Virus record (IMG/VR): IMGVR_UViG_3300018080_006015
Coordinates: 55,630 to 119,629 of that record
DNA from: a virus
Strand: one strand, 5' to 3'
Length of the DNA: 64,000 nucleotides
This document shows, one piece after another, positions 5,073 through 54,092 of this stretch. Under the pieces are notes generated by a model, which did no database searches, was not told where the DNA came from, and saw only the letters and a program-made list of their open reading frames with translations. The position numbers and the translations under genes were made by a program. Positions within the stretch are counted from its first letter, which is position 1; each line of letters opens with the position of its first letter.

Positions 5073-7658
5073 ATGAGCGGCAAAGTAAATCTAAAACAAC
5101 TATTTCAATCTGATGCGGTTGGAGGCGGAATTATCCATTATGATGGTGATAATTGGGCGTCTTTTAATTCAATGTGCGTATTTGATCATATTGCCGGCCT
5201 CGGGGATGGTTATTGTGATTCAATTGTGTGGATATTTAATGATGATCAACAACCTGTATTAGGTCAGCTTGGGTCTCTAAGTGGTGATGGTTACGATTTT
5301 ATTATTCAAGCACAACCAACTACAGCTCCTGGATCACGGGGTGGTCATTTGGTTTTATCTCCTGGTGTTGGGGATGCATCTAATGGAGAGGTTATTTTTG
5401 TAGTTGGAGCAATTGGTGGACCAGCAGCTGTTGATATGGCCGTTTTAGGTCGTGATGTTGATGGTCCATATTTTGAATTTACAGAAGATGCTGATGTGTG
5501 GCTTGGTCATGGCATAAGAGAATCAGCTGGTAATGGAAGATTATTACATTTTGAAGCGCAAGAGTCTATTTCAGCTTTTTCACGTGGTGGAGAACTAAGG
5601 TTAAGTGGTGGTGTAGGTGAGGCAACCGCAAATTGGCACGGCCCTGTTACAATTTATAGTGGTTCAACTCAGGCGGCATCTTTTGATTATTATCATGCCG
5701 ATATAGATGTTAGGGTTGAGATTGAGCCGGCAGGTCTTGTTGCTACTGGAGAAAGTGCGGTAGATGTAGATTTAAACATTGCTGATGTTGATGATGTTTT
5801 TGCCGTAAGTGCCACATATACTCGTGGGACAACAATAAGTGGAGATAAATTATACGGATGTTACGCGGGTACACCTGGTGATTATTCTGCGGCTGGCGGT
5901 GATAGCAGAGAGGTGAGAGTTGCTGCCTATACAGCTAAAACGCCATTTAATGCTCAGTCAGCTGCAACAATATCAGCATTTTATATTGTTGGAGATTCTT
6001 CTGGTACAAATACTTATGATTATGGATTGTTCTGTCGTGATGAAACTCTTAGAATTGGCACAGAAGCTATTAATGTAAATAACGGCCCTGATATTGAGAT
6101 CATAGCGGGAGATGGAGAAGAAAGTGGAATTACTAATGGCGGTGATATTATTTTAATAGCCGGTGATGGTTATGGAGGTGGAAATGATGGTGTTGTTTAT
6201 ATTCCTGGAAAGCTGACGGTTGACGGTGCTTTAGATCCTATTTCTGTAATTATTCAAGACAAGGTGGCCGGTGATAGTGCATATTTACAAAGTTATGATG
6301 GTTACGCTGTGTCATTCGTTAATCCCGGTGATAATTTTGGCCGAATAAGATACAATGATTTAACGCAGGATTGGGAGTATTCAACGCCAAATACTGCTGG
6401 TTGGCTGTCTATAGGTACTGGTGGTGGTGCTGGAGAATGGACACAATCGGCTAATACTTTATATCCAACAACTGCCACAGTAGATACGTGGCAATTCCAA
6501 GAAGATCCGGCTTTGGGTGGAGTATTAATAACTCAAGAAGACAACACTTTGAGTAGTGGTTCGGGAGAGACTTTTACCATTAGGGCTCAGGCGGCTACTG
6601 GCGGTGGTGGTCGTGGTGGAACATTAGTGTTACAGCAGAGTGCTGGTGCATTTGTTGATGGCAGTGTAGATGTTTGGGATGCGGCTACGCCTACACCAAA
6701 TGTAATAATGAGATGGCTTGATGATGGCCCGTATTGTCATGTTCCAAAATTTGCATTTTTATCTAGCGTAGTTAATCCGACCATTATTCATGAAGCGATT
6801 GCTACTGCGGGGACCGATTTAACCATTCAGGCACAACCATCCGAAGACAATGCTGGTGGAGCATTAATTCTTAACGGTGGTGGTGGAAGTGTAGTTTCTG
6901 GCTCATTTGATGGCGGAAATGTTGAAATAAATGGTGGTGATGCAAATGGAACTGGTGGTAATGGTGGCGATATTCAGTTAACCCCAGGAGGAGGGGGATC
7001 GGCGAGTGGTGATGATGGTGAAGTAATAATGATTTTTGGCTCATCAATTGTAAATACAACCTTTACAACTGACGTTACTGGATATGTTGGCAGTATAGGA
7101 ATTGTATTTTCACAAGCATCTACTAATCCAATAATTACGCAAGATGGGGGTGGTTTAAGCGGCGATCCTGGAGATCCACTGACAATAAAGGCTCAAACAG
7201 GAGCTAGCGATGCACAAGGCGGAGAACTTAGGTTGTTTGGTGGAAATGGCACAACTACATTTGCTGGCGGTGATGTGGTAGTTCACGGCGGTACTTCTTC
7301 ACTTGGTTCTGGGGGAGAGGTACAATTACAAAGCGCAGCAGGTGCGAGCAGAATAAGAGTAGATGATAGTCATTCATATTTGGATGAAGATCTTGAGGTA
7401 ACAGATGATTACGATATTTATCCCACCACTGATGGACAAGGTAGTGTTGGAACAAATGCCAATAGGTTTGGGCTTATACGTGGAGTTACTGTTACTTCTG
7501 GTGACCTGGCGTTTGACGATAGAAAATGCCCAGTGTGTAATCAAGAGTTTCAGGTAGATGACGAGTTAGCATTAAAGGTTATCTGTGTTGAGGATGATGA
7601 TGTAGGACACAGAATTACAAAGACCGTACCAATGCATCAAACATGTTGTAAATCATAA
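5073..7658 (+). CDS. Gly-rich modular fibre-like protein (861 aa) with C-terminal Cys/His finger
   Basis: GKLTVDGALDP module, IQAQ...GGxLxL modules, 4 DGY, C-terminal CPVC...HQTCC. Confidence 0.7.
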   Translation: MSGKVNLKQLFQSDAVGGGIIHYDGDNWASFNSMCVFDHIAGLGDGYCDSIVWIFNDDQQPVLGQLGSLSGDGYDFIIQAQPTTAPGSRGGHLVLSPGVGDASNGEVIFVVGAIGGPAAVDMAVLGRDVDGPYFEFTEDADVWLGHGIRESAGNGRLLHFEAQESISAFSRGGELRLSGGVGEATANWHGPVTIYSGSTQAASFDYYHADIDVRVEIEPAGLVATGESAVDVDLNIADVDDVFAVSATYTRGTTISGDKLYGCYAGTPGDYSAAGGDSREVRVAAYTAKTPFNAQSAATISAFYIVGDSSGTNTYDYGLFCRDETLRIGTEAINVNNGPDIEIIAGDGEESGITNGGDIILIAGDGYGGGNDGVVYIPGKLTVDGALDPISVIIQDKVAGDSAYLQSYDGYAVSFVNPGDNFGRIRYNDLTQDWEYSTPNTAGWLSIGTGGGAGEWTQSANTLYPTTATVDTWQFQEDPALGGVLITQEDNTLSSGSGETFTIRAQAATGGGGRGGTLVLQQSAGAFVDGSVDVWDAATPTPNVIMRWLDDGPYCHVPKFAFLSSVVNPTIIHEAIATAGTDLTIQAQPSEDNAGGALILNGGGGSVVSGSFDGGNVEINGGDANGTGGNGGDIQLTPGGGGSASGDDGEVIMIFGSSIVNTTFTTDVTGYVGSIGIVFSQASTNPIITQDGGGLSGDPGDPLTIKAQTGASDAQGGELRLFGGNGTTTFAGGDVVVHGGTSSLGSGGEVQLQSAAGASRIRVDDSHSYLDEDLEVTDDYDIYPTTDGQGSVGTNANRFGLIRGVTVTSGDLAFDDRKCPVCNQEFQVDDELALKVICVEDDDVGHRITKTVPMHQTCCKS

Positions 7659-7716
7659 ACAACAAAAACAACCAACAAAATAGAGAGTCTGACAATAGAA
7701 ATAACAGGTTAAAATC

Positions 7717-9276
7717 ATGACAAAGGTTGATCTAAAACAATTTGCTCAAAGTGGGGCCGTTGACCAAAACGTTATTCGGTATAATGCAACTACAGGTTTG
7801 TGGGAACCTGGTGTGGCAGCTTTTTCTGGTGGTGGTGGTGCCCCTACAGCAGAAGACAAAAACCTTATACCATTTGCTACCGGACCTGGTAATGGACAAG
7901 ATACCGGAATTGAAATTAGCGAAGAACCAATAGGAGATCGTTATGTTACGGTAATTGTTAATGGTATTTCTTCTAGTATAGGAGATGGATATACCTCGTT
8001 GGACTGTTATTTTTCTATAGATGGTGGTCTTACAGCTTTAAATCTGTCTGCGATCACTACTGGTGCTAGGTTATATTGGAATAGTACGATTGCTGGGTTT
8101 CAGTTGGCTCCCACGGATGTAGTTGATTTAGATTACGATGTGTTAGATGGTTACAGTCCGGGCCCAGGCCCTAGTGGCGATTGTGGTTGGACAGATGATG
8201 GCGCTGTGGTTCGTTTGACAACTATTACTGATTTTGTTGGTGTTGGTACTGTTGCCCCTAATTTGAAGTTTGATGTTGTTGGTGATATTGGCGTTTCTAG
8301 TTCTCTAGTTGTTGGTCCATTAGCCACCGCTGCAACTGTTGGTGAAATTCGATTAAATACTGATAACTGGGTAATGTCTCGTCAAGGCGTATCAGATGTG
8401 GGCGTTGTTGGTTATGATTCTGCAGGAACAATGTCTGTATTAGGTCATAATAATCCTGCCTTAATGCCATCATGGACTGCCGCAATATCAACTAATGGGT
8501 TTGTTGCTGGAAGTGCCGTTCCATATATGGCGGTTACTCCAAATTGGGCCGGAGTAAATGGTGTTTATATTAATTTGGACTCTATTCATTTTGAGGAAAC
8601 AATTACAAATCCAATTATTACGCAGGATGCAACAAATTCAGCTGGGGCTGCGTCATATTTAGAGCTGTCCGCACAAGATAATTCAAATGCCGCTGGAATA
8701 GGTGGAAATTTGTTATTAGAACCAGGTGATGGAACATTAATGAATGGTGGTGTTCATATTGGGTTTAATCACAGCACAACAGATGCAGATATTGGCGTTT
8801 GTATAGGCAGATACGCCAGTGCAGAAAATTATGGCGAAGTTGCACAGTCTAATGGTGTTTGGTCTTCTGCCGGTGAGTCTCAGTCATCTAGTCTGGTTTT
8901 AAGGAATGCGTCTTCCGGAGCCGTAACTGTAGATTTGTTTTTAGATGGTATGGCAGAATATTTTGTTTTAGATACTATTAGTACATATATTTTTGAAATT
9001 AAAGTTGTGGGTTCGTCTCCTTCGTTGTGGCCAAATATAGTATCGGCGGCTTATAAGTTTGAACTATGTGGTCGTAGAGATAATTTTGGAACACAGATTA
9101 TGGGATTAGTCAGTAAGACAATTATTTATGAAGACGAAGTTGGTTGGGATTGTGATATTGACATAGATGATACCGGCGCTGATGAATTAAATATACAATG
9201 TACAGGAATTGCCGGCAGAGATATCTTTTGGACTGCATATGTTAGAGCCACAAAGGTTCAAATTCCACCAATCTAA
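7717..9276 (+). CDS. Modular fibre-like protein (519 aa)
   Basis: N-terminus paralogous to 5073; WTDDGAVVRLTT..D.VGVGT module; C-terminal beta domain shared with 9300 and 19057. Confidence 0.7.
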   Translation: MTKVDLKQFAQSGAVDQNVIRYNATTGLWEPGVAAFSGGGGAPTAEDKNLIPFATGPGNGQDTGIEISEEPIGDRYVTVIVNGISSSIGDGYTSLDCYFSIDGGLTALNLSAITTGARLYWNSTIAGFQLAPTDVVDLDYDVLDGYSPGPGPSGDCGWTDDGAVVRLTTITDFVGVGTVAPNLKFDVVGDIGVSSSLVVGPLATAATVGEIRLNTDNWVMSRQGVSDVGVVGYDSAGTMSVLGHNNPALMPSWTAAISTNGFVAGSAVPYMAVTPNWAGVNGVYINLDSIHFEETITNPIITQDATNSAGAASYLELSAQDNSNAAGIGGNLLLEPGDGTLMNGGVHIGFNHSTTDADIGVCIGRYASAENYGEVAQSNGVWSSAGESQSSSLVLRNASSGAVTVDLFLDGMAEYFVLDTISTYIFEIKVVGSSPSLWPNIVSAAYKFELCGRRDNFGTQIMGLVSKTIIYEDEVGWDCDIDIDDTGADELNIQCTGIAGRDIFWTAYVRATKVQIPPI

Positions 9277-9299
9277 AGCAACAAACAGTAGGCATATAA

Positions 9300-12200
9300 A
9301 TGGCAAATGGTTTTATATACGACAGAAGTATACCTCAGATTGAATTAATTGATGGTTATGACGGAACTACCCGTGTAATCATAGACGGATCTGAAAACAC
9401 TAACAGTAAAGTTTATGTTAATGCTATTGCTGGGAATGGTTTGTCCCCCGTTACTATAGATGCCGACTTTGGTGCTGGTGTTCAAAATCAAGTCGCGGTA
9501 TATGCTAATGTTTTTAGATCTGGTCCCATTACAGCATCTGGAGCTGGAATTGGCTGTTATTTGGCTCAGATAGAAGAACATGCCGCTGATGATGTGCGTT
9601 CTATAATTGCTGGTTATTTGGCGTTGGAGCCTAGAAGATCAGCTCCTCATGCCACAGAAAGCGTAGCTGCATTTGCTGCTTTCGGTGATTCTGCCTCTGA
9701 TAATTTGTGGGACAGTACACTAACGATGTACGGTCAAGATTGTATAATTAATGCAACTTCAATGGGTTCGGGTAGTGGGCCAAATTTTGCAGTGTATACG
9801 GGGCAAGGTTATGACGGTTACGGCGGTGGTGATGCTGTATTTACAATGGGTTACGGCGATATTGCTGGCGGAGCTGGTGGTAGTTTTATAGTTTTTCCTG
9901 GATTAGGGCCAACTAGTGGAGAACATGGATCCGCAATCTTTTGGAGTGTAGATGAAGATCAAACGCCAGTACGAATTAGAACCACTGTTCCAAATTTTGC
10001 TGATTTGACAAGGTGGGAGAATTATGATGGTTATTTATTAGCTGCTGTAACTGGTGACGGTCATTTTCAGATGACAGATGGGGCTGTACCAGGATATGTA
10101 TTGACATCTGATTTTGATGGAGTCGCTTATTGGGCCCCTAGTGACGGTTATGATGGATATGGTTATTGGACATTAGATGGTAATTTTTTATATCCCAACT
10201 TTTCTGATTATGACGTTGTAATAGGTGATACTACAACATCTATTCCTGGGGAAAAATTACGAGTAAATGGCGATACAACAATAGATGGTAGATTGAGGGT
10301 CGGGACGGCTACAGATGCTGTTGGTATTGGCGATTTTTCTTCTGGTATGGTTGGTACTACCAGGTTGCATTATAATCAGGCAAATGAGAGTTTAAATCTT
10401 TATGATAATGCAAATCAGCAAGTCATTCAATTACAAGCATTTACTCCGCTTTCGACATTGCCCTATGTTGCGGTTGGACTTGGAACTCTTTTTCTTCCGG
10501 GACCAATTAATCCAGTAAGCCCAGAAACTGTAAGAATAGACAGTCCACTTTCTGGTTTGCGCATAGAGGATAATTTAGGGCCAGCTGGTAGTTATATTGA
10601 GTTTGGAGATGGACAACTTGCTGCCCCATCTCAAGCGATTGGGCCTTTGGGACCTGAGGCTAGATTAATATATCATGCTGGTTTTAATTCTTTAGCGGTT
10701 TCTTATGCCGGCGCTCCTTATGTTCCAATTGGTGGTGGCGCACCTTCTGGTTGGACGGATGATGGCGTTGTTGTTAGATTAACTACCATTAATGATGCTG
10801 TAGGTATAGGTACGGCCACGCCAGCAGCTGGTATGAAGCTTCACGTTGTTGGTGATACTTATTTAGAGTGTGATGATTTTTGGGTAGGTACAGACGGTTA
10901 TGCGCGCATGACCTATTCTAGGCTGCAAGAATCATTAACCCTATTTGACAGTTCTGATCAGGCAACCATATTATTAGACGCATTTACTAATGGTGGGTAT
11001 ATAGGAATAGGATCTACAGCGGTTATGGGTCCAAGCGGTTCAGAGCAATTGAATGTTGATGGTGACGCTTATATTGGGGGAAAACTAACCGTAATTGGAG
11101 AGATCGATCCTGTTTCAGTAACTATTGAGGACAAAGTTACATTTGATTCGGCTTTTTACGAGGCTTATGATGGTAGCAATGTATCTCCTGTTTTACTTTC
11201 TGAGTCGAGAGGATTACTTAGATACAATAATTACACACAAGATTGGGAAATGTCTACCCCAAATACTGGCGGATGGGTTAGTTTTGGTGGTGATGGCTAT
11301 GCCGGTTATTGGGATCTTAAAGACGGATATATTCTTCATCCATTAGATGATGATTTTGATGTTACTATTGGGACAGATAGCGTAACAGGTACTGGCGAAA
11401 AGTTATACGTATATGGTCGTCAAGTAATACGTTGTGACAATCTTCCGTCTGGATCGTCAGAGGCGCTGTATGTTGAGGCGGATATTCAGGAATCCTATCA
11501 GGCGGTAATTAACGCTAGTATACGCAGGATGACCCCTCTTGATGGTTATTATTTCGTTACCGGCATTACTAGTCGTGTTAATAATTTAGCTGCGGACAAT
11601 ATTTATTCTGCCTCTGTGGCATTTGCTGCGGCTGAACCGGATGTAGAAAACCCACAAGCGGTACGAGTTGCTTATGTAGTAGAAGGCAATCAAGATACCG
11701 GCAATTTTTATAATGTTGGTCTTGCGGCGGTTGATCAGGATCTAGAAATCGGATCAGTACGAAGAGCGCCTGGTGATGGCTTTGATGTTAGAATATCTGC
11801 CGGCCAAGGAAGTTTTGATGGTTATGGCGGCACTTTACATTTGAGCAGTGGTGGTGGAGAATCTACAGCTCCTGGTGGTTATGACGGGGCAGATATTGAA
11901 ATGTACACCGGTAATGGTGCATCTACTGGTCCTTTTGCGGGTGCGGCAGGAAATTTGCTGATAATATTAGGTAATGCCTCTTCTGATGGTTTTGTTCCAG
12001 CAGATGGTGGTAGTTGTAATGTTGAGTTGGGTTCGGCGGCAGGAATAGGTGGAAATCCTGGAAGATTTACAATTACTGGAGCTAATGGTCATTTTTCCGG
12101 CCCAATGGCTATATTTCAGAATCAAGATGGTTATTCCGCATTAGAAATTGGCGTAGAAGGATGGGCCTCTGTTGGTGGCGGATTTGGTCTTGCTAATAGG

Positions 12201-19037: not shown

Positions 19038-19056
19038 TAAATAAAGAGGTTGAACA

Positions 19057-20295: not shown

Positions 20296-20362
20296 TTTCC
20301 AATTTATGTATCAGAATTAGTGACGCTAATGTGTGGGAATATATTAATGGAGACAATAGGTA

Positions 20363-25309: not shown

Positions 25310-25327
25310 TAAAGTTGTGATAAAACT

Positions 25328-26137: not shown

Positions 26138-26144
26138 GAAATAT

Positions 26145-26960: not shown

Positions 26961-26973
26961 TTTTGAGGAAATA

Positions 26974-27786: not shown

Positions 27787-27823
27787 AATTTGCACATTAA
27801 AATTAAGTAATAATAACAAAAAT

Positions 27824-27900
27824 TTGAGCTATCCAACGCCTAATTTTGCATTGCTGTAGGTATTGAACTATCCAATTTTACCTAATAAATTGCTTTTTAG
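27824..27900. repeat. Degenerate ~40-bp tandem duplication with a 13-bp core TTGA(G/A)CTATCCAA
   Basis: Cores at 27824-27836 and 27863-27875, each followed by CCTAAT...TTGC. Confidence 0.6.
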
Positions 27901-27928
27901 TAATAATACACATATAGCGAGATGAATA

Positions 27929-33900: not shown

Positions 33901-36900
33901 TGATGTAACCGGATTTTTGTATCCAATTGTTCCAACCGATGGTGTTCAAATCGGTGGCGAATTGGAGATGGATAATAATATCATCCTGAATAAATCCATG
34001 GTCGGTGCGGGATCCCCATCTCATCTAATTGAGTTAATTGGAGAAACCAGCGTAGCAGATCGTTCGGTTTATATATACAACAACTCCTGGGCGGCAGTTG
34101 ATAATTATGGTATTAGGCTTGATGATGATAGCAACAATTTATGTGCTGAATTTGGTTTTGGTGCTGGGCTTGGCTCTATTTGGAGGTTTAATAATGCTTC
34201 AGGTGGTATGAGGCTACATACAGAATCTGGGGTTGAAATTTGGGCACTTAGTCAGGCCGGATCTTGGAATATCCAAAATTTGCATGGCATACAATTTACC
34301 CAACCAGGATTTTCAGGTGGAGCTAGCGCCAATGCATTTAGGGTTATTGGTGGGGCCCATGTTGAATTACCCGCTTCTACTGAGAGATCGGATATAAGTT
34401 TTGAATTAGGGCGAGATGTAGAATTTGCCGCCGGGGCATTAGCTCAACAGAGAGCGGTAATTGTAGAGGCTCCGACTTATAAGTTTGATGGCGCCTCCAC
34501 GTTAACTACAGCTGCCACGTTTGCCATAGAAGGCGCCCCATCAGAAGGTACAAATGCAACTATTACAAATTCGTATGCATTATGGGTACAATCTGGTGAT
34601 TCTAGTTTTGGTGGTGATATCTATTTTGATTCATCTGTATTGTCGCCCACAATACAGCAGAATAATACAACAGTTGGCGATGGAGAAAACCTAAGAGTAG
34701 CCGCACAAAGCAGTTCTGCTATTGGTAGTGCTGGTGGGAATCTAACTCTTGCGGCTGGTTATGGTACCGATGGTTATGGTGGTCATTTGGGCTTATATGC
34801 CGGTAGTTCCGCGGTCTCTGGAATAGGTGGAAATGTTTATCTAACACCAGGAGAAGGCACAACGGTAGGGCAGGTAATAATACGTGAGCCGTTTGGTGGT
34901 ACTAGTATTGTAACGTTTGATGATACGTCAGTCGAATCTCCCGGCAATCCAACATGGAATTTTGGCTCTTCATTAGCTACCTTTGAGGGTGATGTACAAA
35001 TCGACGGCAAGTTGACTGTTGATGGCTATTTAGATCCTATTGCAGTAATAATTGAAAGTGCAACGGATGATGCTTTCCTACAATTATCTGCTGGTGAAAA
35101 TGCTGATATTTCCAGTGCCAATGAATGCCGATTGATATATGATAGTGTTGGTGCTAGATTATTAGTATCTGCAAATGGCGGTCCGTATTCTCCCATTGAT
35201 GGTTACGCAGGATCTTCTCCATGGACATATATTGGAGGTGTTTTATATCCGGATAACTATATTACAGACGCAGTTGTAATTGGTGATAATGCTGTTGTTG
35301 GATCAGAGTCATTAAGAGTGGTCGGAAACACCTCTTTGTTAGGAAATGTCGTTATAGAAGAAGGAACAACGAATCCTTCCATATTACAACTAACAAAAAC
35401 CTCCGGTGCTGCTCAAACATTATCAATTTCAGCACAGTCTAGCAATGATTCTTCTGGCGGTCCATTAACTCTAAATGCTGGAAGTGGATATACGACAGGT
35501 GGCGATATCAATGTGAACGCTGGTGACGGATATACTTGGGGTAATGGTGGTGCTATTCGGTTGCGTGGTGGTGATGCTACTGGAATTTTGGGTAGTGGTG
35601 GTCATGTTTACATCCAAGGCGGAGATTCTGTTGGTGGTACTCAGGGTTATATTATTACTAATTCCAGCCAGGTTGTGTTTAAGGATTTCTCTGGAACTAC
35701 ATTTGCCTCCATAAGTAATGATAATGAGGCATTGTATTTCTCTGGCGGCTCCTCTCCAACCATTCAACATCTTGCTACAAATACATTTACCAATCCACTA
35801 TCTATTATTGGCCAAAACAGCTCAACGGAAGATGGTGGCAATGTTGTAATTTCCGGCGGAGATGCAACGGGAGCTACTGATAAGTCTGGAGGCGATGTCG
35901 AGCTTTATGGTGGGTCCGGAAATGGTATTGGAGTGGCGGGTATTGTTCACTTATTTGGTAGTGGTCATATTCTAACTGTTGATGGATATGATCGGGTAGG
36001 CGTATCTGATGTCGTAACAATAGACGTGGCAAAAGATCGATCTGATGCGTTTAGGTTGATGGAAGATACAAATCTTTATATGCAGGTCTTTACAGATATT
36101 GGTTCCGAATCAATTGTCTTCGGGGGAACAACAAATCCGGATTATGAGTTTTTTGGTACGGGAACCGCAACGTTCGAAGGCGACGTGGAAATAGGAGGCA
36201 AACTTACTGTAGACGGTTATATCGACCCGGTAGCCGTAATAATAGAGAGTGCGACAAATGATGCTTACCTTGGGTTGAGTGCTGGGCAAAACGCCTCACG
36301 TAGTGCTGCGGATGAGGGAAAGATTATTTACAATGCAGTTTCGCAGAAATTCCAACTTTCAGCTAATGGAAATGCTTTTGTAGATTTAGCAACTGGAGGA
36401 AGCAGTGAATGGAATAGAACTGGCGATGTTCTAACTCCCGCAACTGCTAGCGTAAACTATTGGGAATTTGATTCAACCGCCTTAGATCCGGTTATCACCC
36501 AGGCTGATGAAGATGGGTATGATGTTACAGCTCAAACCCTAACCATTAAGGGTCAAGATGTTACTGGTAATTTGAGTGTTGGTGGTGCTGTTGAAATTTG
36601 GGGTGGTGCTGCCGCGTTGGATAGTGGTGATGGCGGTGATGTAATAATTCATGGCGGAAACGCCCCAAGCGCTGTCGGTGGTGATGTAATACTAAGACAG
36701 TCCGGCGGGTTTAATACTGGCGCAATTAGAATACAAAATGTTGCTAGCGATGACATATTATCCTTTAGCAGTAATCAAATTAGCGGCTTGGCCAATAACC
36801 CAACGTGGTTATTCGGAACTGGAAGTGCTAATTTTGGAGCAGATCTTACCGTTGTTGGTGAGCTTAATGCCGGTAGTGTTGATGTTTCTGATTATGTCGA

Positions 36901-39900
36901 GATAGGAGGCTCACCCGCAGACTCAGGCGCTATTAGACTGGAAAATGCTGATGTTATAAACTTCAGAGAAAATGGCGGTCTCGGAAATATACGCGCACTT
37001 ACAGTAGATGTTAACGACGATATTTTTGTGGGAAGCAATAGTACTTACCAAAGAGATGTTGTTTTGCACGTACCTACTGGTAACAATATAAGAATGCAAT
37101 ATGGGCCTGGTATTACAACAGCAGCAAGATTTGTTACTGGTGCAAATGCTGTGGCTATGGATCTTACTGATGGTTCTGCCGCTGGTGTTGGAAACCTAAA
37201 CGAAGGAAGATTGCGTTACAACAATGTTACAGAAACATTCCAGGTGTCTACAAATCATGGTTCTTATGAAGATATTTTAACTGGCGCATTTCCTGAAGTC
37301 AGTAAATGGACAAAAGATGGTTATGTATTATATCCAAATGATTATGAAAACGAGATAGTTGTTATTGGCGACACTTCCCCGTTTACAGATGAAATACTTT
37401 CTGTACATGGTAAGCAAGTTATAGATGCTGGAGCGTTAGGAGACAATGACTTTGGATTATCTGTTGTTGGTTACTTAGACGGTACTCAAACGGCTCTAAT
37501 TTGGTCTCATATGGTTAGAGACGGTTATTGGGGTGTAAATGGTTTGGCAGGAGCAATTGGTGCTGATGTAGCGACCCAAATTGGAGATGATCCTGATAGT
37601 AATGTGGCGGCTTTTGTTGCCACTCCTCCCGCTATATATTCAACAGATCCCAATACATATGCGTTTTTGGCAATGTCTGGTGGCGGAACTGGTTATGAGA
37701 CTACTCTTGGCGCTTTAGAGCAAGATCTGTTAATTCGTACTGATGTTCCCGTTGGCGCTCCAGATGGTTATGGTTACGATATTATATTAGAAACCGGACC
37801 AGGAACGGCCGCTTCAGGAGCTTATCGTGGCGGTGAAATAACATTGCGCGCTGGCAATGCTGTTGCTGCTGTTGGGTCACGATCTGATGGCGCTAGCATT
37901 TTTGTAGAAACAGGTGATGCTGCTTCAAATGGTGGCGGAAATGCTGATGGTGGTGATTTTGAGGTTCTATTAGGAGATGGTGCCGGTGGCGGATCTACCG
38001 GAAGTATGGTGGTAAGAGCTGGCCTAGGAAATGATGATTATGTTGTATTTGAAAATAACTCAGGGGCCAGATCGTTAACGGCTGGTGGTTTAGGTTGGGC
38101 TTATGTTGGTTCTGCCTCCGATCCTAGTGCTCCAGGAGACTTTGCTGCTGGATATCAAAATTCTACAAGAATGTTTTTCAGTCGTGATTTAGAAACATTT
38201 CAATTGTTTGATGGTACAAATGCAAACACTTTTGCCATTGAAATAGATTCAGGTTATGTCGGAATAGGATCGGGCGCAACAGGTGGGCCATCTGGGACCG
38301 AATTATTACAAGTTGATGGTGATGCTTATATAACCGGAAAACTTACTGTTGACGGATATTTAGATCCCATTGGTGTAATAATAGAGAGTCCAACATTTGA
38401 TGCTTTCCTTGAACTTGGTGTTGGTGATGGGGCAAGTTTGGCTCCTCCAGATACTGCAAGATTAATTTACGACCAATACAATAATAAACTACGAGTATCC
38501 TATAGTGGTGCCCCATATCAAGATGTTGGTGGGGATGGATATGGAGCTTCTCTGTGGACACAAGTTGGCGATAATATGTGGCCGGCAGCTGGTACTAGCG
38601 CTAATGTTATAGTTGGTGATTTCTCTCAAGACGGATATGAGAAATTTAAAGTTGTTGGTGATCTTGGTCAGTCGGTAATGTATGTGGAGCGGCCAGAATC
38701 TGATATTACTGACGATAAAGAAACATCTGTAACATTTAACCTTACACCCAATAATATTGTAAGTGGCGGAGAGGTAGGCGCAGTACACATTCAAGCTGGC
38801 GCAAGAGGTGATATAGGGTCTGATACATTTGCTGTTGGCCTTGCTATTGATTCTGTATGGGAAGGTAATATGGCATCTGACTCTGTCGCTTCTGCTATGA
38901 TTGTTGAGTGTGGGACCAGAAGCACTAACGCTGAGTATACTGCTGGTGCTATATTTGTCTTACCAGAAGAAATAGAGGGCGGATATGATTCTGGTTTGTC
39001 TGATATGTTGCGTTTACTTAATGAGGGCGGCACATTAGGTAACTTTATCAATTGTGAAATGCCTGGTGAAATAAGTGCATTTAAGGTAACTGGTGATGGT
39101 TATGTTGGTATTGGTCAGGCAAATCCGACAACACAATTAGATGTTGTTGGCAAAACTATATTGCAGGACTTGCAAATAACAGGATCATTAACTTCTGATG
39201 GTTATGTTTTAACTTCAGATAGTTTAGGCAATGCTGTGTGGGCTCCTGCTGGTGGCGGAAGTTATTGGCAGCGAGATCCTGTTGAAGGAATTGTATATCC
39301 TAGCGTATTAACTGATAGTATTGGGGCACCAGCAGATATTATTTCTGTAAACGGTGGAATGCTTTATTGGCGTGATAGCACTGATACTCTTGATATAGAG
39401 GTGTTAACACTTGATGCTTCTGATAATATTATAGTTGGTCAAAATACGACAGATTTTAATAACATTGCACTATCTGTCGGAAATTCTGGCGTAATAGAAA
39501 TGCAAACAGGTGGTCTTGCCAGATATACCGTAGAAAGTAACGGCAACCTTACGATGGAAGGTGATTTTGATTTTGTTCCTGATGGAGATGGACAGGGCGA
39601 AATTGGAACGACAGGATCTAGATTTGCATCATCGCATTTTAGCTCTTATATGGCTGTTGGTGTTGGTGCTGGGTTGCCAAGTGTCGGTGCTGTTAGACTG
39701 CAAAATAATTTGGCCATTGAGTGGTCTAGTGCGGCAATTAATGATGTTCAAGTTCTTTCGTTAGATAACTCAGATCAAATAAATGTTGGAAGTTTGGATG
39801 CCGATCTTGCCGGTATTATTTACAATACACCATCATCTACATTTCATAGCTTAAGAATAAACAACGCAAGTATTCTTGAGTTGGCATCTGCATTTGTTGA

Positions 39901-42900
39901 GGTAAGCCCGGCGGATTTGCGATTTGATAATGATGTTAATAATCCTATCTTTAGGCAGTTTGATGATACTAACGATTCTGCTACTGGTTGGTTGTTTACT
40001 ATTCATGCTCAAGACATGACTAGTAATGTTGATACTACTGGTGGTGATTTGTTAATTCGAGCGGGTAATGCTAATACTGGTGGGACCGGAACAGGCGGAA
40101 CCTTACATTTGCGAGCGGGTAACTCAACAACAGAAGGTTCCGTAATTATTGAGCAATCTGATGGTACTGGTATGATGTCCTTTGCATCTGATACCAATAC
40201 CGTTACGGCGCCGTCTAATCCAACCTGGAATTTTGGAACTGGTGTTGCAACATTTGGTAACGAGGTAAACGCTACTAGTTTTGATGCGACAAACTTTATC
40301 GAGATAGGAAGTTCTCCAGCAACTGTTGGCGCATTAAGAATGACTAATAATCATTCTGTTTATTGGAGGAACGAGCAAGGCACTTCAGATATTCGTACAT
40401 TATTTGTTGATGGTTATAACAATATAACTCTTGGCGATGATCTTGGTGATGTAAATGATGTTGTAATTTATGCCGCATTAAATAAGGAAATCCACTTAGA
40501 CGTTAATAACGATACAAGATTTAGTGTAAGTGAAACTGGCGTCCAATGTTATGAAAATGCAACATTCTTAGAAGATATTCTTGTGGTTGGAGATGCCGAC
40601 TTTGAAGGCGACGTACAGATTGATGGCAAGCTCACAGTAGATGGTTATATAGATCCGATAGGCATAACCATAGAAGATCATTATGGTAATGGCGCTTATA
40701 TGGAAATAGGTGATGGTACTGCCGCTCCTCTTTCAAGCCCAGGTATGTGCAGAGTAATTTATGATTCGACAGCACAAGAGCTTTTGGCATCTTTCGGGGG
40801 AAATGCTTATGAGGTCATTGGTACTGGCGGCTCTTCTGATGGATATTGGAGTTATGATTCTGTAACAGGTACTTTATATCCCAAACTTGATTGGACAAAT
40901 GATACGCTAGTTCTTGGTGACAATGAAATGGCTGGCGCAGAAATGATGCGTGTTACTGGGGCTGTTCGATTTGAATCTCATATGGAATTAGGCACCATAC
41001 TTCCGGGTAATGGCGCAATTAGGATGGAGAGTGATAGCGCGATTGTTGCTAGAAACTTTGGAGACTCTGCTGATATCAATTTAATATCAAATGAGAGAGA
41101 AGGGGCAACTGATCAGTGTAATATTATTATTGGTAATAATGACGCAACAGCCTTAAATGATATGCAATTTAATCTTCCAACGGGTGGTGCATATCAGTCC
41201 TTAATAGCTGGCACAAGATACATGAGGTTACAAGAAAGTGAGTTGCTTCTAGGTGCGAGTGGTTCTGGTTACAATCTTAATTTTGATGCTGGCGTTTCTG
41301 ATCCAAGTATTTTCCAGATAACATCACCTGATAATGGAATTACCGGTAATGAGTTGAGGGTTCGCGCACAAAGTGTTAGCGGAACGGTTTCACATGGCGG
41401 CTTATTAGTTCTTGGTGGAGGTGATGCTGATGATGGTCATGGTGGCGGTGCTATTCTATTTGGTGGAGACGGCACTGGTGGTGGTGCCTATAATGGCGGC
41501 ACAGTAACATTACGTCCCGGCCAAGGGGGAAGTAATAATGGAACTATTTCTATAGAAGATGCAACTGAAACAGCACAGATTGTTGTTGATGATGACGAAG
41601 TAGATTTTGTTGGTTCTGCAGTAGTTTCAACGGGAAATCCAACATGGAATTTCGGAACGGGAGCTGCTACATTTGAGGGTGATGTTCAGATTGATGGTAA
41701 ATTGACCGTAGATGGGTATCTAGATCCGATAGCCGTAATTATAGAGAGCGCTACGACCGATGCATTCTTGGAATTAGGCGCTGGTGAAAATTCCAGCCCA
41801 AGTCTCGCTGGAACAGGTAGGATTAGGTATAACAGCTCTACCGATAAATTTGAGATGTCAGAAAACGGTGGAAGTTATGGTGAAATTCCGACAGGCAGCG
41901 TAGAGTGGAATAGGACATCTGATACTTTAAGTCCATCAACGTCTAGTGTAAATGAGATAGAGTTTGGCGCAACAGCTGGCGATATTTCGATTACGCAGGC
42001 TAATAATACTACTGGTAATGGCTCTACTATAACTATTAGTGGCCAGACTTCAGGTGGCGGCAATGGTGATGGCGGTAATGTTGTAATAGAAGGTGGCGTA
42101 CCTCATGGTTCTGGCGCTCCTGGATATGTTGATCTAGATATTCAACATATGGCAGGATCAACTTATAGCACTCTTAAGGACGCCATAAACCAACAGTTTA
42201 CTCCTACTGTTATTACTGGCGGAAATATTACAGATAATGGTGATGGAACTGTTGCTGTTACTGCCGGCACTGGTATAATTAAGACTACTGACTCTAGATA
42301 TGGCGAGACAATATTTATAGATTGGGCCGCAAATAATAGCTTAAGCCTAACAGATGAGTCTATTAACTTTATTTATTGCGATTATAATGGGGGCTCTCCG
42401 CAGCTTAGTGTGGAGACTGTTGACACTAATTTGTGGAACCAAACCAGAATTCGAGTTGGTATGGTTTGGCGTGATGGTACTGTGGCCCATATTTGGGTTG
42501 CTAATTCTGAGTTTAATAGTTTGGGCGGTCAATGTTCTAGGCGTTTTTGGGAAGACCAGGGAGCACATAGAACAAGTGGAATGATCATAAGCGAAACGGG
42601 TACTAGAAACTTTGCTCTAACGTCTGGTGTCTTCTGGGCTGGATTTAGTAAAACCACAACCCCATCATTTGATATGTCTGGGGCAGATACGTTTAATTAT
42701 TATTATACTTCGGATTCTGGCACGAGCTGGACAAAGGTGACAGGCCAGACTCAAATAAATAATACTCAGTATAATGATATCACAGCTGGGCTTTCGACGT
42801 TATCTAACAATAGATATGGTGTTCATTGGGTATACGTAGATGTTGCGGGCGATGAAGTTCATGTGGTTTATGGTCAGGGAAATTACCTACTGGCCCAAGC

Positions 42901-43888
42901 AAACGATGCCCAACCACCATCCGTTATACCTCCTGTTGTAGGTGGTTTCTGTTTGTTGGTCGGCAAGATAATTATTGACAAGGACGACACATCTTTCACA
43001 GCAGTGCTAACGCCATTTACAACTTCCTTTAGCGGATCTATTGTACAAAATCACAATGATCTGGCAGGTATACAGGGCGGTACAGGCAGCGAGTATTACC
43101 ATTTGACTGCCGCAGAATATTCTGATCTCGGATTATGGACAGATGGCGGAACGGTATTGTACCCATCTGATAGTGAGACCGTAGTTATTGGCGATACAAC
43201 AATGTCTGGAGCGGAAACCCTTAGAGTTGTTGGTGATGCGTTAGTTGAAGGTGACACTACTATTACAGGTAAACTCACTGTAGATGGGTATATTGACCCC
43301 GTTGGTATTACTATAGAAGATGGTGCTGGCAATGGCGCATTCTTTGATGTTGGACCAGGTGATTCTGTCGATTTTAGTCCTGGAGGAATGGGCAGGCTTC
43401 GATATAATTCTGCTACTGATAAATTTGAAGTATCAACAAATGGTGGTAATTTTAGTGAAATAGCTATTGGAAACGCAAATGTTATATCAGGGTTAACTAC
43501 GACAGGACTATCAGAGGGTGATTTTGGTTATGTTTCCGACGCAGATATCGTATCTAAAACAGATTCAAAAACAGAAGCATCATCTTATTCTATAGGAGCT
43601 AACGAAGGAATTGTTGGAACTATAACTATTTCTGGTGTAATTGAAAATGCAAAATTTACAACAACAGGTGGTGAGCCGGCCAATGGTGCTCCAGTTTATT
43701 TGGCATCCTCAGATGAAGAAGCAAATGCAACCGGCAAATTAACAGCAACCGCACCAACCGGACAAGGTAGCGGAGCCGGTGCAGGAAATTTTGTTGCTGA
43801 AGTTGGTATTTGTATAAGCAATGGTAATTACGCGGGATCTAAAACATGTAAAATTCTTTTGCAACAAAAAAGAGTTGTTAGTGTATGA
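27929..43888 (+). CDS. Giant Gly-rich modular fibre/virion protein (5319 aa)
   Basis: Uninterrupted 16 kb ORF with nine GKLTVxGxxDP modules, about 38 DGY and a HNDLAGIQGG..EYYHLT fibre motif; C-terminal domain shared with 44110. Confidence 0.82.
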   Translation: MANGFIYNRSIPEIRLIDGYDQNDVVIISGDRDSGLNLGVTADLDVPGPPPISFITSFGPGVVNTGVVSATMDRPAPMVDSSSGLVCYFAQAEEHAGDIDTTLIGGFAAIEPVRSPFGHAHAAAFVASGNPVTGDDWDSTLFCLDTNCVITTITGFDGYGRYFLVQTGDGYEQSGGDAIFALGDSYGSTPDTYGGNLLVRPGLSEVGFPAGDHGKVVLEARASDQQLLAVRGFAGQTRDLVTFTDETATTYSGITADGRYFLIDGAMPGYVLTSDAFGIVRWAPPTGDGYDGYSYWSLNGTDIHPIDVAYNVAIGDIATSGGGEVFYVSGRSFMDGGSLPPFSDALLVEANCDNGNVSVIEASIQRINPLGPGEIVSAIKVGAENVLGDHPSSAMAGILFDAPTINDSNPPSGAIVVFGDSASGNYYQGTVVALDHDLNLSCDRIFSGPGDGPNVAVFAASGVSNGVGGVISMQTGSADAAGAPPGTALAGGALLFQTGDSSSSAAAIDGPLMYFLCGNASSTNGDPATGGGVQFNMGYGDGIGGRTGEFIINDPVMNKYVRVDFDGYSTRLNGGLDPNLSNAQFEIHADTNTTNGPGASLALFASNATYDFGPSGFDGGNIWLHTGDGYQIGGSGGSGGNVNILCGSAAAGGSGFGGGVIVSLGESDDYDRHGRFTVESTVGGPYCSTYSSSPDTIDIVGFAQSTFRLSSETIGDGVPGTSFFITASNGNASLPGGYVGGDLSLVAGHGAVNGLFDADGGGLYLFGGDATSGNIGADGGSIYFHPGEGAGAGFGGAVVMQAAEGHIGEFVRMQTTDGYPVFSAGVEGWVEIGSATDPTDLGDFSSGIDGYARLFYDQSEGAINLFSGNGVATAVLSANVNGGFLGLGTVGPFGSEQLSVVGDAYIGGKLTVVGALDPISVSILDTIGAGDGAYYEAYDGSGVAPVGPGDSFGRIRYNNLSQSWEASTPITGGWLPIGGGGPSGDGYWSLSDGYILYPQNTNYDVVIGGTDVTGDGEKLRVQGLTLLEGQPGQEDAVIVSGWCDFDDATVVNVEMQRFSGLGPYEAVHGYKTEVTSIPSDHVDSLTSAFTADVPEIGNPAAWSSAFTLFGNDSSFDSYTFALLSVDQNLNIVAARSPSGGLHSPHIQLATTTPMDGYAGDIIINPGSSNAANPNSAYNGSNLDIITGNGSASGFGYAADGGHVEVELGGGASGDGTTPAMGGGFYVKLGAGDGVGALGGVFHIANSPTTNNNMLELTENDGTTKIAVLGSPGYFNLGQIYVASGAGDLAAGDGYNYLYYDASEMRLMMTDLLGNQQITLEADTNGGYIGVGGGATIPAGPEQLRVANNAVIEGALAVNASGMAGNETLRVDGVAGQPMATFIRPGSTCASSQIAIDVQARGDILAGDTCQVVRILGGIGANNAGSTGIALDVNAESDGSWTAGASGIGLKLSGGKVDSDGTFIVEHILQPATIGGNPSYVDTILKVEKAGGTLVDNYFEIVDLTTAASPIFSVSETLFNCTLDAEFNADVQIDGKLTVDGYIDPIGIIIESLTNDAFLELGDGQNAVVSGPGTGRLIYNDSTQAFMMSVDGGPYRIIGTGGGGGDGYWERDESGFLYPVFSGDDIALGSDPASIGVIRLNNNEGIYWNNTLGTGDIRGLFVDSNNDVLIGSTGGSQRDVVLNVPTGNELRMQINSSDMVEVASNYIILNPRQLVFDSSTSSPIIYQDQDITPGVTGQNLTVQAQNCPGGGGAAGGSLYLEPGNGNIAGSVVITDAITPIITVNVNGVEIGDPLFRFDKSISTPTIYHEDSDGYTSSLTVRAQGTTLNSGTGGNLNILGGSAAFGGGSTGGSVVIQAGAGDTEGSVLIRESAGTTWLSFAGGNINFSNGTTAVTASSNPTFNFGSGLSTFEGDVQIDGKLTVDGYLDPVAVIIDSATNDAFLEFNAGENAALSPSDAGRIIYDNTSKSFMASVDGGAYVALGSGTGDGYWGRDVTGFLYPIVPTDGVQIGGELEMDNNIILNKSMVGAGSPSHLIELIGETSVADRSVYIYNNSWAAVDNYGIRLDDDSNNLCAEFGFGAGLGSIWRFNNASGGMRLHTESGVEIWALSQAGSWNIQNLHGIQFTQPGFSGGASANAFRVIGGAHVELPASTERSDISFELGRDVEFAAGALAQQRAVIVEAPTYKFDGASTLTTAATFAIEGAPSEGTNATITNSYALWVQSGDSSFGGDIYFDSSVLSPTIQQNNTTVGDGENLRVAAQSSSAIGSAGGNLTLAAGYGTDGYGGHLGLYAGSSAVSGIGGNVYLTPGEGTTVGQVIIREPFGGTSIVTFDDTSVESPGNPTWNFGSSLATFEGDVQIDGKLTVDGYLDPIAVIIESATDDAFLQLSAGENADISSANECRLIYDSVGARLLVSANGGPYSPIDGYAGSSPWTYIGGVLYPDNYITDAVVIGDNAVVGSESLRVVGNTSLLGNVVIEEGTTNPSILQLTKTSGAAQTLSISAQSSNDSSGGPLTLNAGSGYTTGGDINVNAGDGYTWGNGGAIRLRGGDATGILGSGGHVYIQGGDSVGGTQGYIITNSSQVVFKDFSGTTFASISNDNEALYFSGGSSPTIQHLATNTFTNPLSIIGQNSSTEDGGNVVISGGDATGATDKSGGDVELYGGSGNGIGVAGIVHLFGSGHILTVDGYDRVGVSDVVTIDVAKDRSDAFRLMEDTNLYMQVFTDIGSESIVFGGTTNPDYEFFGTGTATFEGDVEIGGKLTVDGYIDPVAVIIESATNDAYLGLSAGQNASRSAADEGKIIYNAVSQKFQLSANGNAFVDLATGGSSEWNRTGDVLTPATASVNYWEFDSTALDPVITQADEDGYDVTAQTLTIKGQDVTGNLSVGGAVEIWGGAAALDSGDGGDVIIHGGNAPSAVGGDVILRQSGGFNTGAIRIQNVASDDILSFSSNQISGLANNPTWLFGTGSANFGADLTVVGELNAGSVDVSDYVEIGGSPADSGAIRLENADVINFRENGGLGNIRALTVDVNDDIFVGSNSTYQRDVVLHVPTGNNIRMQYGPGITTAARFVTGANAVAMDLTDGSAAGVGNLNEGRLRYNNVTETFQVSTNHGSYEDILTGAFPEVSKWTKDGYVLYPNDYENEIVVIGDTSPFTDEILSVHGKQVIDAGALGDNDFGLSVVGYLDGTQTALIWSHMVRDGYWGVNGLAGAIGADVATQIGDDPDSNVAAFVATPPAIYSTDPNTYAFLAMSGGGTGYETTLGALEQDLLIRTDVPVGAPDGYGYDIILETGPGTAASGAYRGGEITLRAGNAVAAVGSRSDGASIFVETGDAASNGGGNADGGDFEVLLGDGAGGGSTGSMVVRAGLGNDDYVVFENNSGARSLTAGGLGWAYVGSASDPSAPGDFAAGYQNSTRMFFSRDLETFQLFDGTNANTFAIEIDSGYVGIGSGATGGPSGTELLQVDGDAYITGKLTVDGYLDPIGVIIESPTFDAFLELGVGDGASLAPPDTARLIYDQYNNKLRVSYSGAPYQDVGGDGYGASLWTQVGDNMWPAAGTSANVIVGDFSQDGYEKFKVVGDLGQSVMYVERPESDITDDKETSVTFNLTPNNIVSGGEVGAVHIQAGARGDIGSDTFAVGLAIDSVWEGNMASDSVASAMIVECGTRSTNAEYTAGAIFVLPEEIEGGYDSGLSDMLRLLNEGGTLGNFINCEMPGEISAFKVTGDGYVGIGQANPTTQLDVVGKTILQDLQITGSLTSDGYVLTSDSLGNAVWAPAGGGSYWQRDPVEGIVYPSVLTDSIGAPADIISVNGGMLYWRDSTDTLDIEVLTLDASDNIIVGQNTTDFNNIALSVGNSGVIEMQTGGLARYTVESNGNLTMEGDFDFVPDGDGQGEIGTTGSRFASSHFSSYMAVGVGAGLPSVGAVRLQNNLAIEWSSAAINDVQVLSLDNSDQINVGSLDADLAGIIYNTPSSTFHSLRINNASILELASAFVEVSPADLRFDNDVNNPIFRQFDDTNDSATGWLFTIHAQDMTSNVDTTGGDLLIRAGNANTGGTGTGGTLHLRAGNSTTEGSVIIEQSDGTGMMSFASDTNTVTAPSNPTWNFGTGVATFGNEVNATSFDATNFIEIGSSPATVGALRMTNNHSVYWRNEQGTSDIRTLFVDGYNNITLGDDLGDVNDVVIYAALNKEIHLDVNNDTRFSVSETGVQCYENATFLEDILVVGDADFEGDVQIDGKLTVDGYIDPIGITIEDHYGNGAYMEIGDGTAAPLSSPGMCRVIYDSTAQELLASFGGNAYEVIGTGGSSDGYWSYDSVTGTLYPKLDWTNDTLVLGDNEMAGAEMMRVTGAVRFESHMELGTILPGNGAIRMESDSAIVARNFGDSADINLISNEREGATDQCNIIIGNNDATALNDMQFNLPTGGAYQSLIAGTRYMRLQESELLLGASGSGYNLNFDAGVSDPSIFQITSPDNGITGNELRVRAQSVSGTVSHGGLLVLGGGDADDGHGGGAILFGGDGTGGGAYNGGTVTLRPGQGGSNNGTISIEDATETAQIVVDDDEVDFVGSAVVSTGNPTWNFGTGAATFEGDVQIDGKLTVDGYLDPIAVIIESATTDAFLELGAGENSSPSLAGTGRIRYNSSTDKFEMSENGGSYGEIPTGSVEWNRTSDTLSPSTSSVNEIEFGATAGDISITQANNTTGNGSTITISGQTSGGGNGDGGNVVIEGGVPHGSGAPGYVDLDIQHMAGSTYSTLKDAINQQFTPTVITGGNITDNGDGTVAVTAGTGIIKTTDSRYGETIFIDWAANNSLSLTDESINFIYCDYNGGSPQLSVETVDTNLWNQTRIRVGMVWRDGTVAHIWVANSEFNSLGGQCSRRFWEDQGAHRTSGMIISETGTRNFALTSGVFWAGFSKTTTPSFDMSGADTFNYYYTSDSGTSWTKVTGQTQINNTQYNDITAGLSTLSNNRYGVHWVYVDVAGDEVHVVYGQGNYLLAQANDAQPPSVIPPVVGGFCLLVGKIIIDKDDTSFTAVLTPFTTSFSGSIVQNHNDLAGIQGGTGSEYYHLTAAEYSDLGLWTDGGTVLYPSDSETVVIGDTTMSGAETLRVVGDALVEGDTTITGKLTVDGYIDPVGITIEDGAGNGAFFDVGPGDSVDFSPGGMGRLRYNSATDKFEVSTNGGNFSEIAIGNANVISGLTTTGLSEGDFGYVSDADIVSKTDSKTEASSYSIGANEGIVGTITISGVIENAKFTTTGGEPANGAPVYLASSDEEANATGKLTATAPTGQGSGAGAGNFVAEVGICISNGNYAGSKTCKILLQQKRVVSV

Positions 43889-45819: not shown

Positions 45820-45870
45820 TTAATGGTAAAGTGTAGGATTCAAATAGAGTTATAAAACGGAGAAAATACA

Positions 45871-54025: not shown

Positions 54026-54063
54026 TTCACATTAACAAAATTACTCATTAATATATTTACGCC

Positions 54064-54092
54064 TTGTCGGCGCGTCTTTTATGAGTTACATT
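54064..54092 (+). promoter_or_regulatory. Sigma70-type promoter candidate
   Basis: TTGTCG-N17-TACATT, matching the 3871 site. Confidence 0.55.

Follow-up and report, generated by a model that had tools for sequence, protein, structure and literature searches.

A dispersed Asp-Gly-Tyr motif on the tail, baseplate and fibre proteins of a clade of huge phages, a candidate acceptor code for tyrosine glycosylation

The tripeptide Asp-Gly-Tyr (DGY) recurs throughout six fibre-like proteins encoded between positions 5073 and 43888 of a 64,000-nucleotide stretch of viral DNA, referred to here as the window (bases 55,630–119,629 of the 119,629-bp contig IMGVR_UViG_3300018080_006015). Genes on the contig include those for a Baseplate_J/gp6-like wedge protein, UvsW- and DnaB-like helicases and a TubZ/PhuZ-like tubulin. 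The CheckV completeness of the contig is 21%, that of related contigs of 94–153 kb is 22–36%, and the sizes of relatives reach 409–459 kb. Because of this gene content, these completeness values and the sizes of the relatives, we assign the genome to a huge myovirus of roughly 400 kb. The fibre block is composed of the following genes (window coordinates; aa, amino acids), the last pair providing an internal negative contrast:

5073..7658, + strand: 861-aa glycine-rich fibre-like protein with 4 DGY and one full copy of a ~160-aa fibre module; orthologue P0009, 51% identical
7717..9276, + strand: 519-aa fibre-like protein with 2 DGY
9300..19037, + strand: 3245-aa giant fibre protein with 26 DGY and 11 module matches; orthologue P0004, 23 DGY
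19057..20295, + strand: 412-aa short fibre protein with 2 DGY
20363..25309, + strand: 1648-aa fibre protein with 10 DGY and 4 strong module copies; orthologue P0006, 9 DGY
25328..27786, + strand: three tandem paralogues of 269, 271 and 270 aa, 47–49% identical, with 0 DGY, between the 1648-aa and 5319-aa fibre genes
27929..43888, + strand: 5319-aa giant fibre protein with 38 DGY and about 10 strong module copies; the same open reading frame (ORF) as P0154; orthologue P0007, 21 DGY
44110..49653, + strand: two Gly/Asp-rich fibre-like proteins of 569 aa and 1260 aa, with 0 DGY

None of the fibre proteins of the window could be assigned to a family by Pfam or PHROG, and a whole-protein homologue search with the 412-aa protein returned only the protein itself and one weak match. 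The N-termini of the 3245-aa and 5319-aa proteins are homologous, with LI-DGY-D at residue 18 in each. The three ~270-aa paralogues share a conserved N-terminal C-x5-H-x11-C-x2-C and a C-terminal GSRFT..WWPM motif; Pfam and PHROG gave no lead for them, nor did an Atlas look-up of the 269-aa copy. We treat them as gene context of the fibre block rather than as members of the DGY system. The two fibre-like proteins without DGY lie in a stretch with a GC (guanine plus cytosine) fraction of 0.47, compared with ~0.42, and the 1260-aa protein contains one partial copy of the fibre module, without DGY; the pair may have been acquired more recently, or may belong to a class of fibre that is handled differently.

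Each of the six DGY-containing ORFs is one open frame on the + strand, and together they hold 82 copies in 12,004 aa, compared with 5.6 expected from composition. From 5′ to 3′ the counts are 4, 2, 26, 2, 10 and 38 (expected 0.41, 0.17, 1.99, 0.10, 0.72 and 2.22). The recount agrees exactly with the figures in an earlier note on this DNA. In 1000 shuffles per protein, the maximum was 7 for the 3245-aa protein (26 observed) and 10 for the 5319-aa protein (38 observed). A first-order Markov model predicts 14.8 copies in the six proteins (z = 17.5). DGY is their top-ranking tripeptide, followed by GDG (63) and GGG (56), and 18% of all their tyrosines lie inside it. Explanations of the excess by composition, Markov statistics or shuffling are ruled out by these values.

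The motif is specific at every position as well as in the order of its residues. After D-G, the six proteins have Y 82 times, F twice, I once and W or L never; before G-Y, they have D 82 times, N twice and E never. Permutations are scarcer (DYG 1, GDY 5, YGD 4, GYD 16 and YDG 13), those of GYD and YDG mostly overlapping DGY itself. The earlier note had proposed asking whether DGF, NGY and DGW are equally common, the mark of a generic β-turn preference. They are not (DGF 2, NGY 2, DGW 0, DGL 0, DGI 1). A generic type I′ β-turn preference (Asx-Gly followed by a β-former) can be rejected, since Asn and other aromatic or β-branched residues do not interchange with Asp and Tyr. The DGYDGY tandems, the codon variants and the toggling among TVDGY, TVDGA and TVVGE that the note had listed were all found, as was the lack of DGY in the proteins starting at 44110 and 45871 (0 in each).

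The excess lies in the peptide. On the plus strand of the 119.6-kb contig, the word GAYGGNTAY has 103 matches, 99 of which are in frame 0 of eight genes, with 2 in frame +2 and 2 elsewhere; the minus strand has 1. Codons inside DGY follow the same usage as those for D, G and Y in the remainder of these genes, and relatives show the same coding-strand excess of the DGY word when compared with reversed-pattern controls. A DNA-level repeat or recognition site is ruled out by the frame and strand specificity and by the background codon usage, in line with the previous suggestion that selection acts on the peptide.

Duplication of modules accounts for a share of the copies. For 62 of the 82, a BLAST high-scoring segment pair between paralogous regions matches the copy to one or more others, the largest real families being GKLTV-DGY-[IL]DP and G-DGY-W..D..G.LYP. 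The 82 copies collapse into 33 alignment-linked clusters (13 multi-copy and 20 singletons), and the 99 copies obtained by adding two proteins from outside the window collapse into 50; as the clusters were built by single linkage, these numbers are a lower bound on independent contexts. The enrichment survives the collapse of paralogues (33 clusters compared with 5.6 expected). Over-aggressive masking of everything that aligns to an earlier region left 4363 aa, in which there are 22 DGY compared with 1.48 expected. Duplication covers roughly half of the copies and is ruled out as the whole explanation. The assertion that most copies sit in non-homologous contexts was thus overstated, given the 62 alignable copies, but at least 33 independent contexts stand.

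The key new result is the comparison with homologues of the fibre module that are free of DGY. A profile of the ~160-aa module was built from 17 paralogous copies (consensus ...GKLTV-DGY-[IL]DP...GRIRYN...G-DGY-W..D..G.LYP) and searched against 1.84 billion representatives, matching 1122 proteins at E ≤ 1e-3 and 395 at E ≤ 1e-10. DGY content was compared among the best 150 of the 1122 and two earlier matches. The DGY-rich members of this set are the phage's own proteins together with P0004, P0006, P0007 and P0009 (23, 9, 21 and 7 copies), all four encoded on one 176,187-bp contig. The other 143 proteins contain 22 DGY compared with about 27.5 expected, that is, no enrichment, and no comparable dispersed tripeptide was found in other large module homologues. 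At the first DGY site of the module, other lineages have TGA (39), TGV (14), DGA (12), TGS (9) or TGL (8), with DGY in 0 of 134 aligned copies, compared with 14 of 22 in the DGY lineage; at the second, they have SSP, AGP or GGG, whereas DGY occupies it in 9 DGY-lineage copies. Paralogous modules within the phage toggle to DGA, VGE, IGE, VGA, TSP, SSE or AGE, and never to another aromatic residue. Because other lineages lack DGY and the paralogous and orthologous replacements (DGA, VGE, TSP, SSE and DGS) are mostly non-aromatic, the module fold does not need DGY, and its Tyr is not a packing residue. As judged from these alignments, DGY has been overlaid on a pre-existing fibre module in this lineage.

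A model of the module (predicted local distance difference test, pLDDT, 79, and >90 for residues 30–110) showed in Foldseek only a weak likeness to the N-terminal domains of the CBA120 tailspike TSP4 (E 0.28–0.99), with nothing at E ≤ 0.001; a PDB sequence search with the module profile gave nothing significant. Among five DGY-poor module homologues examined (P0008, P0026, P0027, P0097 and P0125), some have raised counts of Asn-x-Thr-type tripeptides (NTT 11 in P0027, NMT 8 in P0008 and NHT 6 in P0097), which may reflect composition, internal repeats or a different tag of other lineages.

The motif extends beyond the fibre block to two baseplate-proximal proteins. Outside the window, a 2232-aa protein encoded directly after the wedge gene has 5 DGY (including PDGYKDGYNDGY), and a 990-aa protein, also after the wedge gene and with 8% Gly, has 12, compared with 0.3 expected (including DGYDDGYSDGYSDGY). 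The remaining 81 ORFs of the contig (22,675 aa) contain 1 DGY compared with 3.8 expected. In relatives, the tail sheath carries 3 DGY at residues 149–201, outside its PHROG-matched core (640–813), a 1736/1774-aa protein carries 7 and 5, and a 532-aa virion structural protein carries 4. A survey of the genome and its relatives, as the earlier note had suggested, thus yields further DGY-rich structural proteins: all six proteins that it had named belong to the set, but six was too narrow, with the 2232-aa and 990-aa proteins and the sheath and structural proteins of relatives to be added. No fibre homologues were found in the three related contig fragments in which they were sought.

With the 990-aa protein as marker, 689 protein clusters (E ≤ 1e-10) and 124 viral contigs, some >400 kb, were recovered, and the clade is common and globally distributed. 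We analysed 80 further viral loci, at 32–63% identity; in 70 of them, 4 kb or more of sequence is available downstream. Their upstream structural ORFs contain 595 DGY compared with 52.7 expected (observed/expected 11.3) and their 990-aa orthologues 462 compared with 20.0 (23.1), whereas the downstream non-structural ORFs contain 27 compared with 26.5 (1.0). DGY is limited to proteins of the sheath, baseplate and fibres of the tail, the periphery of the virion, and in these outer proteins of the phage and its clade it is about 10–25 times more frequent than chance. Among the papers listed by our literature search, none concerns a DGY or Asp-Gly-Tyr motif in phage or virion proteins; DGY is an undescribed clade-wide surface motif.

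DGY sites are conserved beyond their surroundings. Between the fibres of this phage and their orthologues on the 176-kb contig (49% identity over 5837 columns), 31 of 45 aligned DGY sites are conserved (69%), compared with 19.9% for an average tripeptide; the relative alone has 10 further sites, and most replacements are non-conservative. The 990-aa protein was aligned with the best 120 of the 689 clusters (56–72% identity). These orthologues have 6 to 12 DGY each (median 9, compared with 0.22 expected), and in total 1081 DGY, 65 DGF, 1 DGW, 11 NGY and 0 DGH, so that a swap of Tyr for Phe is rare. Eight core columns have DGY in 104–120 of the 120 sequences, and two softer columns in 61 and 81, the column with 61 (600) being a dockerin loop position 7. 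Conservation is 0.93–1.00 in the motif cores, 0.40–0.90 in their flanks and 0.70 over the whole protein. The length of a C-terminal tandem run of DGYx differs among three orthologues (4, 3 and 0 units); the outer two units of the run are near-invariant, and the inner ones occur in 3–5 of the 120. From these alignments, DGY is under purifying selection with turnover of sites.

The 990-aa protein was modelled with a pLDDT of 82.9 and a predicted template-modelling score of 0.76. Baseplate proteins of phage phi812 are similar to it (E ~1e-4), and part of its chain is a true dockerin module (Pfam Dockerin_1, E 6.6e-9; Foldseek 4uyp_B, probability 1.00). All 12 DGY of the protein are in coil or at the first or last residue of a helix or strand, and the tandem run lies in a loop (residues 908–925, pLDDT < 50) between strands 893–901 and 929–934. 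In the fibre module model, the second DGY site directly precedes strand 118–120. In these models, the motif lies in turns and loops of outward-facing virion proteins. Canonical dockerin/EF-hand Ca2+ loops, which have Asp/Asn at positions 1 and 3 ahead of D-G and then a helix with an acidic residue at position 12, coincide with DGY only at residues 596–607 and 642–653 of the 990-aa protein; over the 99 sites, Asp is found at –2 in 6 and at –4 in 9. A calcium loop fits 2 of the 99 and is rejected for the whole set, as the other 97 lack the upstream Asp/Asn ligands.

Directly downstream of the 990-aa gene lies a glycan-synthesis island (genome 14–36 kb) with at least eight glycosyltransferases (one GT4, four GT2, GT10, GT11 and Glyco_trans_1_2). 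It also encodes a thioredoxin-like protein, a DegT aminotransferase, WbqC, a hexapeptide acyltransferase, at least four methyltransferases and two Sulfotransfer_4 proteins. Two relatives cover this region; both have the GT4 in synteny (50% and 39% identity), and one of them the GT2 as well. Among the 70 loci with sufficient downstream sequence, a GT4 follows the 990-aa orthologue in 67 and an adjacent GT2 in 59. The earlier note had proposed a search for a co-occurring enzyme, and this island, next to the baseplate DGY proteins and with its GT4/GT2 pair syntenic across the clade, answers to that description. The GT2 gave weak, generic GT-A matches only. The Sulfotransfer_4 genes are at genome 29810–30547 (+) and 33886–34473 (–); the family matched none of 14 control bacterial genomes, and Sulfotransfer_3 matches were weak and below threshold. 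Tyrosine sulfation of the TPST/RaxST type is ruled out as the clade-wide reader, the sulfotransferases not being conserved in the three relatives searched, which are fragments. The thioredoxin-like protein (DsbH/DUF255-type; genome 14076–14597) sits between the 990-aa gene and the GT4, and an orthologue is found there in 1 of the 70 loci.

DGY is a peptide-level, clade-specific short linear motif that is selectively kept and independent of fold. The proposal that the motif serves as a short linear signal carried by some virion proteins gains support from its restriction to the reading frame, its overlay on a module that otherwise has TGA, TGV or DGA, its conservation and its limitation to structural ORFs. 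Because a strict three-residue specificity is maintained across unrelated folds, it may be a tag read in trans, most plausibly a putative tyrosine glycosylation sequon for the conserved GT4/GT2 pair; we hold this to be somewhat less likely than not, yet it is our leading reading. A phage-encoded glycosyltransferase would read DGY, the GT4/GT2 pair encoded directly after the baseplate DGY proteins being the candidate. While virions assemble in the host cytoplasm, this pair would initiate a glycan at the Tyr hydroxyl. The remaining transferases and the methyltransferases of the island and, in this genome, the sulfotransferases would extend and cap that glycan, and the outcome would be a glycan coat over the tail periphery and fibres. 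That DGY is modified, that the modification is on Tyr and that GT4/GT2 carries it out are each a step that we infer. More tentatively still, DGY may be the acceptor code of a virus-encoded, tyrosine-directed modification, likely an O-glycosylation started by GT4/GT2, that coats every outward-facing tail, baseplate and fibre protein clade-wide, each with tens of glycans.

Several observations weigh against a glycosylation sequon. Two loci with 9 DGY (L031 and L047) have no GT4 within 7–9.5 kb, two others (L056 and L060) have a GT4 but 1 DGY in the 990-aa orthologue, and G002 lacks a GT2 neighbour. The association between glycosyltransferases and DGY is confounded by shared descent, and synteny alone proves little because no DGY-free sister group was found. 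The island could serve host-surface or other glycans. Neither an oligosaccharyltransferase (Wzy_C) nor a known protein-directed transferase is present among the island and neighbouring proteins scanned with Pfam and NCBIfam in this 21%-complete fragment, and a sequence search with the GT4 found no solved relative. Sulfotransfer_4, matched twice in this genome, is matched in none of three relatives searched, themselves fragments. The near-invariance of eight columns of the 990-aa protein is equally expected from an intrinsic structural or metal-binding role, and the two DGY copies in canonical dockerin/EF-hand Ca2+ loops are at positions where D-G is conventional.

These last two points belong to the strongest alternative, in our judgement unlikely, in which DGY is an intrinsic structural or chemical motif with no reader in trans: D-G would form a tight turn, and the Tyr hydroxyl and Asp carboxylate would act as a staple that hardens loops and trimeric fibres. 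The staple could be hydrogen-bonded or metal-binding (Ca2+, or an Fe3+-tyrosinate on the trimer axis). In favour of this alternative, every modelled site falls at a turn, in coil or at the end of a secondary-structure element, two copies are true dockerin/EF-hand loop positions 5–7, the eight core columns are nearly invariant among the 120 best orthologues, and the strict preference for Tyr over Phe fits a role of the hydroxyl. His-x-His iron sites, scattered along the tip of the phage T4 long tail fibre, offer a parallel: there too, a motif of very few residues recurs along a trimeric fibre and serves a chemical purpose instead of defining the fold. Unlike them, DGY also occurs in non-fibrous proteins and in tandem runs in flexible loops, and it toggles off in paralogous modules. 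The fibre module, moreover, does without DGY in all 134 aligned copies from other lineages, and copies within the same protein switch to DGA, VGE, TSP or SSE. A turn preference would allow NGY, DGF and DGW, which number 2, 2 and 0 in the six proteins. As in the DxDxDG loops of EF-hands and dockerins, D-G stands at a tight turn, and two of the 990-aa copies are loop positions 5–7; however, loop position 7 is normally variable, and 97 of the 99 DGY lack upstream Asp/Asn ligands, a DxDxDG loop needing Asp at –2 and –4 (present in 6 and 9). Finally, the copy number of the tandem DGYx runs varies, and the loop that holds them was modelled with low confidence.

Direct multivalent adhesion is distinctly less probable. 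Exposed Asp/Tyr loops would be weak patches for polysaccharides of the host envelope or of particles, with avidity gained along the fibres. Carbohydrate- and antigen-binding sites favour Tyr and Asp, and the limitation of DGY to outward-facing tail, baseplate and fibre proteins, its many copies on giant multi-module fibres and the gain and loss of sites between related phages would all suit such a role. However, three residues in dozens of structural contexts are unlikely to make a single well-defined site, surfaces that bind hosts tend to diversify whereas DGY persists across relatives at 32–72% identity, and sheath and inner baseplate proteins carry it too.

We give slightly less credence again to DGY as a tag on which a second phage protein docks. 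That protein could be a chaperone of assembly, a decoration protein or a side-fibre branching partner, with the ~270-aa paralogues as candidate. The same specificity arguments suggest a reader in trans, the module is weakly like the N-terminal attachment domains of the branched CBA120 tailspike TSP4, and the three paralogues are encoded inside the fibre gene block; yet the structural matches are not significant, and Pfam, PHROG and Atlas provide the paralogues with no link to DGY. Several of the roles that the earlier note had listed (dityrosine or isoAsp chemistry, protease processing, a chaperone or host binding) may also apply. An artefact of composition, module duplication or a DNA-level repeat deserves almost no credence and is already refuted: the proteins are indeed Gly/Asp-rich and made of paralogous modules, most copies aligning with another, but the excess exceeds every statistical expectation, spans at least 33 contexts, survives masking, is bound to frame with background-like codons, is absent from Gly-rich homologues of other lineages and recurs in the non-repetitive, Gly-poorer 990-aa protein.

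A tyrosine sequon would have partial precedents. Short sequons such as Asn-X-Ser/Thr and the Bacteroidetes O-glycosylation motif D-(S/T)-(A/I/L/V/M/T) are three-residue codes that enzymes read in many unrelated folds, that are enriched on surface proteins and whose sites are gained and lost; the acceptor residue and the motif differ from those of DGY. We know of no enzyme that reads D-G-Y.

In mycobacteriophages (Che8 and relatives), phage-encoded glycosyltransferases glycosylate virions (Freeman et al. 2023, as summarised in PMC11256854); according to that source, the glycans are covalently attached to virion proteins, the major capsid protein being concerned, and form a shield. Like these phages, the one described here has its own glycosyltransferases, the GT4/GT2 pair and the island lying beside structural genes. 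In those phages modification of the capsid has been demonstrated; here the putative acceptors are tail, baseplate and fibre proteins, with a strict D-G-Y, a Tyr acceptor and tens of copies per protein. Tyrosine O-glycans on prokaryotic surface proteins have a precedent in bacterial S-layers, with β-Glc→Tyr and β-Gal→Tyr linkages in Paenibacillus alvei SpaA and Thermoanaerobacter, 2–4 sites per protein and a presumed cosecretional transfer from a lipid carrier, catalysed by an O-oligosaccharyltransferase (PMC2943079); the sections consulted of that source give no consensus motif. Here, by contrast, assembly is cytoplasmic, no such transferase is found among the scanned proteins, and there are up to 38 sites per protein.

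The surrounding genes offer several further observations. The 5′ end of the window (1–1896, +) is part of a genome ORF (53713–57525) for a ribonucleotide reductase large subunit split by an intein with a LAGLIDADG homing-endonuclease domain (PHROG 84; Pfam LAGLIDADG_3; weak Intein_splicing). A methionine aminopeptidase-like protein (Peptidase_M24, E 2.3e-35) is encoded at 2778–3677 (+), shortly upstream of the fibre block. Downstream are two candidate lysis enzymes (+), one glucosaminidase-like (56760–57518) and one Amidase_2-like (58577–59386), both below the Pfam cut-off. The TubZ/PhuZ-like tubulin (Pfam Tubulin, E 1.2e-16; TubZ-like_C, E 4.5e-9) is at genome 46008–47372, beside the UvsW- and DnaB-like helicases.

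Even without an enzyme that reads it, DGY is one of few clear examples in a virus of selection placing a short linear motif, time and again, on pre-existing folds, and the 17 paralogous modules with and without DGY, together with more than 100 orthologues, provide a ready test set. If the acceptor-code reading is true, no tyrosine sequon and no proteome-wide ‘written’ surface code would have been described before DGY in any bacterial virus. As a sequon it would represent a new chemistry and code of protein glycosylation, with a Tyr acceptor in a three-residue motif at very high density. Huge phages would then clothe their tails and fibres in glycans of their own making, with consequences for how hosts are recognised, for resistance to proteases and grazers and for the behaviour of particles in water and sediment.

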